The notes beneath the pieces are model-generated. The model was not told where the DNA came from and ran no database searches. It saw nothing but the letters and a program-made list of their open reading frames with translations. The position numbers and the translations under genes were made by a program. A DNA stretch of 7,540 bases from a virus (lineage: Duplodnaviria > Heunggongvirae > Uroviricota > Caudoviricetes), in IMG/VR virus record IMGVR_UViG_2660238573_000002, one strand, 5' to 3'. Below are positions 4,196-4,849 of the stretch, piece after piece. Numbering within the stretch: the first letter of the stretch is position 1; the number at the start of each line of letters is the position of its first letter.

Positions 4196-4849
4196 ATGAA
4201 ATGGTATGAACTGGCTAGATCCAGAATGAAAGAGCTCGGCATAACTCAAGAGAAGTTAGCCGAAGAGCTAGGTATGACGCAGGGTGGAATTGGACACTGG
4301 TTGCGCGGATCTCGTCATCCATCTCTTAGTGATATTGGTGTGGTGTTTAAATACCTTGGTATTGATAACATATCATTCAACCACGACGGGACATTTTCAC
4401 CTGTTGGCGAATACTCATCGGCCCCAGTTAAAAAACAATATGAGTACCCTGTTTTTTCTCATGTTCAGGCTGGGATGTTCTCTCCAGAACTCAGAACCTT
4501 TACCAAAGGTGATGCGGAGAGATTGGTAAGCACAACCAAAAAAGCCAGTGACTCTGCATTCTGGCTTGAGGTTGAAGGTAACTCAATGACCGCACCAACA
4601 GGTTCCAAACCTAGTTTTCCTGACGGGATGTTAATTCTGGTTGACCCTGAGCAAGCTGTTGAGCCCGGCGATTTCTGCATAGCCAGACTTGGTGGTGATG
4701 AATTTACCTTCAAGAAACTGATCAGGGATAGCGGTCAGGTGTTTCTACAACCACTAAACCCGCAATATCCAATGATCCCATGCAATGAGAGTTGTTCCGT
4801 TGTGGGGAAAGTTATCGCCAGCCAATGGCCTGAAGAGACGTTTGGGTAA
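4196..4849 (+). CDS. cI: CI repressor with LexA-like S24 autopeptidase C-terminal domain
   Basis: C-terminal roughly 130 aa ([28 protein letters not shown]...GNSM...FKKL...[12 protein letters not shown]) matches lambda CI as I recall it, including the Ala-Gly cleavage site and the Ser/Lys dyad. The N-terminal HTH domain is different. Start chosen at ATG 4196 (SD AAGGA, 7-nt spacer); ATG 4190 and TTG 4148 are alternatives. Confidence 0.9.

Follow-up and report, generated by a model that had tools for sequence, protein, structure and literature searches.

The CI repressor of a Shiga-toxin-type lambdoid phage joins a nearly unchanged lambda C-terminal module to a different DNA-binding domain

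The stretch of DNA considered here, IMG/VR virus record IMGVR_UViG_2660238573_000002 (Caudoviricetes; 7,540 nucleotides [nts] in all, hereafter the window), is the part of a Shiga-toxin-type lambdoid phage or prophage that governs immunity and replication, and its cI gene (positions 4196–4849, plus strand) encodes a mosaic repressor. Very probably, the CI protein consists of two modules, of which the second is shared with lambda-immunity phages by recurrent homologous recombination, and operates by the repression and self-cleavage mechanism set out below. The window carries early regulatory and replication functions in the orientation opposite to that of the standard lambda map. As a whole, it is 98–99% identical to Shiga-toxin (Stx) phages and O157:H7 prophages (Stx2a F578, 2851, YYZ-2008, 1717, and Nil2); among these matching phage and prophage records, none offers a single contiguous match to the entire window. 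In the list of open reading frames (ORFs), cI runs from an ATG at 4196 to a TAA at 4847–4849 and specifies 217 amino acids (aa), and the GenBank record of phage Nil2 (AJ413274) annotates ci with the same coordinates. Pfam profiles place an HTH_3 domain at residues 9–56 (E = 1.9e-10, above the curated cut-off) and Peptidase_S24 (PF00717) at residues 85–207, matched over its full profile length (E = 1.1e-28). Every defining feature of the LexA/CI S24 repressor family that a sequence can reveal is present: the helix–turn–helix (HTH), the Peptidase_S24 domain, the Ala–Gly bond, and the Ser/Lys dyad.

The lambda-type module occupies positions 4439–4846 (plus strand), or residues 82–217, equivalent to lambda CI 101–236, and comprises the cleavage-site region followed by the S24 oligomerization and self-cleavage domain. 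An alignment without gaps, fixed at the stop codon, shows 135 of its 136 residues to be identical to lambda. An earlier, sequence-only reading of this DNA had proposed that the protein is essentially identical to lambda CI from about position 4435 to the stop, with one tryptophan-to-leucine difference. That difference is real: the sole amino acid difference in the module is Leu110, encoded by TTG at 4523–4525 (plus strand), where lambda has W129 (TGG; the differing base is 4524). Near-identity holds for the protein and not for the DNA, which departs from lambda at 28 of 408 positions (93.1% identity), 27 of the changes being synonymous and one non-synonymous; the corresponding blastn match covers 4439–4845 at 93.4% over 407 nts, with 27 mismatches and no gaps (E = 2e-177). 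Synonymous divergence (dS) is 0.39 and non-synonymous divergence (dN) 0.003, for a dN/dS of 0.008. Because the DNA is only 93% identical with a dS of 0.39, the module did not arrive by recent transfer from lambda itself; it is an old, strongly constrained unit that the two phages share and no fresh copy of lambda DNA. In structure databases, residues 82–217 match the lambda CI 101–236 chain of PDB entry 8gmu (phmmer, E = 3e-89), and chains of lambda CI and LexA match the S24 part.

The left edge of the module is abrupt. A maximum-chi-square scan of the codon-aware alignment with lambda placed the breakpoint at nt 4439 (chi-square 222.9, a value reached by none of 1000 permutations), where nucleotide identity steps from 39.5% on the left to 93.1% on the right. 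The breakpoint falls inside the connector between the two domains, where it coincides with lambda Y101, 10 residues ahead of the A111–G112 scissile bond. The anticipated joint within the linker was therefore borne out by the pairwise protein and nucleotide alignments proposed for mapping it, with 4439 replacing the approximate 4435; only the C-terminal part is near-identical to lambda, the N-terminal part showing 30% identity, and the protein as a whole does not show family-level similarity throughout. The right edge is equally defined. The match to lambda extends through the final sense codon and no further; the stop codons themselves differ (TAA here, TGA in lambda), and by blastn the DNA downstream of the stop is unrelated to lambda until 6174–6289 and contains no rexA or rexB. 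The nucleotide identity whose continuation beyond cI had been raised as a question thus stops with the gene, and transfer of a cI–rex block was rejected, since lambda nucleotide homology is absent after cI until 6174–6289.

Such a profile could in principle arise by vertical descent alone, the DNA-binding half having diverged toward a new immunity and the C-terminal half having been held in place by purifying selection. Selection on the C-terminal half is indeed extreme, as its dN/dS attests, and the two N-terminal domains are distant homologues with one fold (30% identity over 50 aa, E = 8e-8). Selection on a protein, however, cannot preserve synonymous sites, and the step from 39.5% to 93% at 4439 includes them, so that vertical divergence is an inadequate account; nor would it explain why the flank past the stop codon is also unrelated to lambda. 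The wider family speaks in the same direction. Window-type relatives from other genera share 79–83% identity with the window CI in the N-terminal part and 80–85% in the C-terminal part, both halves diverging in parallel, and lambda is the outlier, with 30% N-terminal and 99% C-terminal identity. The same junction, moreover, recurs in many independent pairs of proteins that belong to different N-terminal families. Descent without recombination is accordingly very improbable, and the comparisons support recombination as the very probable origin of the mosaic cI.

These recurrent junctions emerged when the C-terminal 136 residues were searched against 5.8 billion protein clusters, which returned 308 proteins at E < 1e-30. 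Among the 308, the N-terminal partners of the module fall into at least three families: the lambda type, the window type (“MKWYELA...”), and a “MKTMHEIIGERIK” type. N-terminal types were assigned from clusters at 70% identity, identity to two reference domains, and inspected junction alignments; single-linkage clustering was not relied on, as it merged the lambda and window types, which are distant homologues. In 27 cross-family pairs, the C-terminal parts are 96–100% identical and the N-terminal parts have no BLAST match of at least 45 aa. Identity begins at the same (Y/F)-initial connector box in all 10 of the inspected pairs with 96–100% C-terminal identity, the window and lambda among them. 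The converse arrangement, a window-type N-terminal domain joined to a C-terminal domain not of lambda type, was not encountered; every phage relative checked is homologous in both halves at family-level divergence.

The junction is also widespread in bacterial chromosomes. In 776 of 5426 complete Escherichia coli genomes, 80% or more of a 770-nt query comprising the operators and cI (4080–4849) finds a match, so that this repressor type is found in about 14% of them. About 435 further E. coli genomes match the query only in part, and the 11 partial matches that were listed all start at nt 4439 (query base 360). More than 40 phage records, with Nil2, the Stx1-converting phage, Stx2 II, 2851, 1717, and YYZ-2008 among them, annotate a cI that is 100% identical to the 654-nt gene itself. 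In VT2-Sakai, the C-terminal module is identical and a single N-terminal residue differs (98.8% over residues 1–81). An assembly error or chimeric read in this particular sequence could conceivably mimic a junction of this kind; with the same gene present in so many independently sequenced phages, and the operator-plus-gene query matched in 776 genomes, the probability of such an artefact is vanishingly small.

The history of the module was approached by comparing its 408 nts among six window-type and five lambda-type phages and prophages of E. coli and Shigella. Differences between the window and other alleles number 20 for a lambda-immunity prophage of O104:H4, 28 for lambda, and 35 for Dewey, which is of the window type. 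C-terminal nucleotide alleles are not sorted by N-terminal type, shared blocks of variable sites cut across the types, and the four-gamete test is violated by 160 of the 666 informative pairs of sites. Because the alleles ignore N-terminal type, we conclude that exchange has very probably been recurrent, and that its direction cannot be assigned. At window-type loci such as 160-11H1, the N-terminal-plus-operator DNA is 91.9% and the C-terminal DNA 92.3% identical to the window, a near-equal divergence implying that the chimeric arrangement is at least that old. The Leu110 allele is carried by the window, by the SF-468 prophage, and by phage PhiR11_1_star, and is thus not confined to Stx phages, whereas the Dewey group and all lambda-type alleles have Trp at the position of lambda residue 129.

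It has to be considered whether the roles should be reversed, such that the window-type combination is the older one, the lambda-immunity lineage acquired the module, and lambda is the actual “mosaic.” In Citrobacter, Enterobacter, Salmonella, Kluyvera, and Providencia, the window-type N-terminal family occurs with this C-terminal family, the two diverging in parallel, and in E. coli the C-terminal alleles of the window-type repressor fall into two deep haplogroups that differ at 35 positions and bracket the lambda-type alleles. Since Klebsiella, Citrobacter, Yokenella, and Salmonella in turn carry the lambda-type N-terminal family fused to this C-terminal family, however, neither combination is demonstrably ancestral, and under recurrent exchange “direction” may lack a single answer. 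The reversed polarity deserves appreciable but limited credence. The fusion does not go back to one recent event; the C-terminal module appears to be a cassette from a common pool, its protein almost frozen, that is swapped repeatedly among heteroimmune enterobacterial phages.

What such a cassette would confer is suggested by the biochemistry of lambda CI. A fragment consisting of lambda residues 101–236 alone suffices for RecA-mediated cleavage at A111–G112, and a CI monomer docks in the RecA filament's groove through F106, F121, F141, L143, F189, D187, and E188 (PMC9926225). That construct begins at precisely the first residue of the shared module. All of the RecA-contacting residues, the scissile A111–G112 pair, S149, and K192 are identical in the window CI, where the predicted scissile bond is Ala92–Gly93 in the motif VQAG (codons at 4469–4474, plus strand). 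The nucleophile, lambda S149, corresponds to Ser130 (4583–4585, plus strand), and the general base, lambda K192, to Lys173 (4712–4714, plus strand), both roles being known from lambda (PMC9926225). With the whole 132–236 domain identical, dimerization and higher-order contacts can be expected to resemble those of lambda, and both RecA-stimulated cleavage and cooperativity have presumably been retained, as the sequence-only reading had suggested.

Taken together with the immunity elements described below, these features lead to a proposed mechanism for the recombinant repressor. Module 1 (4196–4438), consisting of the HTH and the upper connector, would set a non-lambda immunity specificity together with cro and six operators. 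Module 2 (4439–4846), shared through homologous recombination, would be bounded by the (Y/F)-initial connector box on the left and the stop codon on the right. CI dimers would bind the right and left operators (OR and OL) by means of module 1, repressing PR-like and PL-like promoters, and module 2 would supply dimerization and higher-order contacts. Upon DNA damage, a CI monomer would dock in the RecA filament groove and cleave itself at Ala92–Gly93 by means of Ser130 and Lys173, and prophage induction would follow.

The immunity-specific part of the protein, residues 1–81 (4196–4438, plus strand), contains the HTH domain and the N-terminal part of the connector. It has only weak identity to lambda, confirming the expectation of a different N-terminal HTH domain in both protein (30% over 50 aa) and DNA (39.5%). 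At 20 residues shorter at the N-terminus than its lambda equivalent, the domain has no counterpart of the lambda arm and first helix. Both N-terminal domains are nevertheless HTH_3-like, and they appear to be distant members of one fold family. Matches of the N-terminal part in structure databases are weak, the foremost being a “DBP48” chain (8tac) and lambda repressor, and those to the 434 and P22 C2 repressors are weaker still. The window-type domain is found at 90% identity or more in 63 phage records. Divergent from cI lies cro (3864–4079, minus strand), which encodes a 71-aa HTH_3 protein. This Cro has the same sequence (100% identity) in five window-type loci and reaches 98.6% identity in the sixth (Dewey); by tblastn it goes undetected in lambda and in lambda-immunity loci. 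Cro therefore co-segregates with N-terminal type, and the N-terminal part of cI, OR, and cro together form an immunity-specific unit. Because the N-terminal domain, the operators, and Cro all differ from those that define lambda immunity, the window CI is not a lambda-immunity repressor.

The operators bear this out. Six 17-bp sites with the consensus AAATACA-N3-TGTAyTT are present, three between cro and cI and three upstream of N, and the pattern MARTACANNNYGT has exactly six matches in the window, all of them in OR or OL. At OR, these are an OR1-like operator nearest cro (AAATACAATATGTACTT, nearly palindromic, 4107–4123), an OR2-like operator (AAATACACATTGTGCAT, 4139–4155), and an OR3-like operator nearest cI (CAGTACAGAGCGTAATA, 4165–4181), all identified by a motif search on both strands. 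At OL, they are an OL3-like operator (AAATACAAAGCGTTGTA, 6336–6352), an OL2-like operator (reverse complement CAATACAATTTGTTCTA, 6369–6385), and an OL1-like operator (AAGTACATATCGTACTA, 6394–6410). A PL-like promoter, TTGACC-17-TACTAT at 6383–6411, overlaps the two sites nearest N, its −35 element coinciding with the OL2-like and its −10 element with the OL1-like operator. The record AP005153 independently annotates the six sites as putative operators, and both their positions and their half-sites persist in window-type immunity regions whose DNA has diverged by 8%. Even with up to three mismatches allowed, the lambda operator consensus has no match in OR or OL, half-site matches being found only inside unrelated genes; conversely, the window motif is absent from the lambda immunity region. 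The surmise that the operators differ from those of lambda is in agreement with these searches. An additional AAATACA half-site at 4127–4133 was considered as a fourth OR site and rejected, as the matching right half is absent. Counted from cro, the centre-to-centre spacings at OR are 32 and 26 bp; counted from N, those at OL are 25 and 33 bp. Lambda OR has roughly even spacings of 24 and 23 bp. The wide gap is thus promoter-proximal at OR but distal at OL.

Several considerations weigh against this account of a recombinant, lambda-like repressor and bear on its separate parts. Inside the module, a permutation test resembling the pairwise homoplasy index was marginal (P = 0.03), and recurrent synonymous mutation could be the source of some of the incompatible site pairs. 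The chance expectation of 0.09 matches for MARTACANNNYGT is generous, as the pattern was derived from the six sites themselves. Because the operator spacings differ from those of lambda, OR1 and OR2 need not cooperate pairwise as they do in lambda. The one substitution in the module, lambda W129 to Leu, sits in the connector beside the cleavage-site region, and a literature search on lambda W129 yielded nothing relevant. Finally, the literature searched yielded no experiment on this CI protein, whose repression, cleavage, and cooperativity we infer.

Among known systems, the closest is the group formed by Nil2, the Stx1-converting phage, Stx2 II, 2851, 1717, YYZ-2008, and VT2-Sakai (Sp5), which has the same layout of cro, operators, orf22/orf173, and N. 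GenBank cI entries of Nil2, VT2-Sakai-type, and related Stx phages carry remarks like “similar to CI repressor of bacteriophage lambda,” and a 2022 survey placed the Nil2-type CI in its CI “Clade I,” closest to lambda CI at 61% overall identity and with HTH_3 and Peptidase_S24 domains (PMC8951638). Lambda CI itself (NP_040628; PDB 3BDN, 1F39, 2HNF, and 8GMU) has residues 101–236, all but W129, in common with the window protein, and the two phages resemble each other in having cI and cro diverge from a tripartite OR and a tripartite OL upstream of N. They differ in that lambda CI possesses an N-terminal arm segment (STKKKP...) that is missing from the shorter window CI; in that lambda operators are of the TATCACCGC type and otherwise spaced; in that lambda Cro is unrelated in sequence to the HTH_3 Cro of the window; and in that lambda has rexA–rexB after cI and the window does not. 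In Salmonella repressors of the epsilon34/SPN9CC/vB_SosS_Oslo type, and in enterobacterial “MKWYELA” repressors, the same two domains are combined, each half being homologous to its counterpart in the window. At about 51% aa identity in the N-terminal part and 73–76% nt and 79–83% aa identity in the C-terminal part, their two halves have diverged in parallel, and they are family-level relatives that do not carry the near-identical lambda module.

Beyond these individual relatives, the window conforms to lambdoid modular evolution in its intragenic homology boundary at the connector, its variable cargo slot, and its islands of homology amid unrelated DNA. Mosaic joints within genes, placed at domain boundaries, belong to the textbook picture of lambdoid phages. 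The module concept of their evolution is said to be due to Susskind and Botstein, and Juhala et al. in 2000 reportedly described intragenic mosaic joints at domain boundaries in a comparison of HK97 and HK022. The mosaic cI is real, and the sequence-only reading interpreted it rightly, but both the phenomenon and this particular case were known before. What might be under-described, with a low probability of being new, is the generality of the junction over three N-terminal families and the strength of the constraint on the module. It is conceivable, though rather unlikely, that the (Y/F)-initial box is a general in-frame exchange point at which at least three families of DNA-binding domains in enterobacterial phage repressors, related distantly or not at all, repeatedly swap one RecA-sensing and oligomerization cassette that is near-invariant in E. 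coli phages (dN/dS ~0.01, dS ~0.4); no systematic description of recurrent cassette exchange at the connector box was found in the literature searched. If this were true, prophages of differing immunity that reside together in a cell would have the same SOS sensor and might assemble into mixed C-terminal oligomers.

Cleavage of CI governs prophage induction, and hence the release of Shiga toxin, in enterohaemorrhagic E. coli. That a widespread Stx-phage repressor has the RecA-sensing module of lambda nearly unchanged, apart from W129L, provides a context for work on induction thresholds, and structural and biochemical data on lambda CI 101–236 are transferable almost directly to the window CI. 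Conceivably, the Leu110 allele could tune induction sensitivity.

The start of cI can be read in more than one way. Besides the ATG at 4196 chosen in the Nil2 GenBank entry (217 aa), there are alternative in-frame ATG codons at 4190 and 4154, the latter having been chosen by AP005153 and by PGAP (231 aa). A start at 4154 would place OR3 within the coding region. Window-type homologues of other genera begin with M-K-(x)-W, which favors 4190 or 4196, and an AAGGA at 4184–4188 is well spaced for the ATG at 4196. As a matter of speculation, the ATG at 4190 might be usable by a leaderless PRM transcript, as in lambda. Wholly within cI, in frame +2 relative to it, there is an 81-aa ORF with a GTG start (4284–4529, plus strand), called “ORF b65” in AP005153. 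It is probably spurious, although it is reminiscent of Hex, whose ORF overlaps 434 cI (PMC3564112).

The surroundings of cI follow the lambdoid immunity architecture, with divergent cI and cro, a tripartite OR, a tripartite OL and PL upstream of N (6529–6873, plus strand), and cII, O, and a helicase beyond cro. The segment between the cI stop and a terminator-like island (4850–6173) is a slot whose cargo differs among phages that share the cI module. It holds orf173 in the window, Nil2, and VT2-Sakai, rexA–rexB in lambda and SfI, hicA–hicB in mEp234, and a hypothetical protein with a DUF1828 protein in the SF-468 and O104:H4 prophages; in Dewey, 160-11H1, and QA-1986 the slot is empty, and OL and N follow directly after cI. 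Degnan et al. are said to have reported variable cargo after cI in wild lambda-immunity phages in 2007. The window's orf173 (5351–5872, plus strand; 173 aa), which takes the place of lambda rexA–rexB, belongs to phrog_2602, a family of unknown function, and is ORF22 in Nil2 and VT2-Sakai. Scans of it and of the neighboring small ORFs for a defence function in the rex slot gave no hit in PADLOC or Pfam. It is co-oriented with cI, and its position suggests a possible exclusion or conversion gene expressed in the lysogen. Upstream of orf173, at ~5225–5250, a GC-rich hairpin followed by a T run was noticed by eye; the terminator scan did not list it.

The slot ends at an island of lambda homology (6174–6289, plus strand; blastn, 87.5%) whose lambda counterpart lies immediately downstream of rexB and which contains a terminator-like hairpin at 6174–6195. 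Further blastn islands lie at 719–788 (98.6%, the ren–ninB intergenic region), at 3386–3487 (79%, within cII), and, near the ral side, at 6907–6937 (90%) and 7167–7270 (96%). Short lambda islands split by unrelated DNA are typical of lambdoid mosaic structure.

On the minus strand beyond cro are cII (3426–3722), an O-type initiator (2424–3245), and a 458-aa DnaB-family helicase with DnaB and DnaB_C domains (1051–2427), along with ninB and several small ORFs. Where lambda has a P-type loader after O, the window has a full DnaB-family helicase, annotated as “DnaB analogue” in Nil2. Lambdoid origins, composed of iterons and an AT-rich stretch, are located inside the replication-initiator gene. 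Within the O-like gene of the window, 2769–2889 contains short tandem and imperfect repeats with periods of 7–14, such as TTTGTATTTATTGTCT at 2785–2824.

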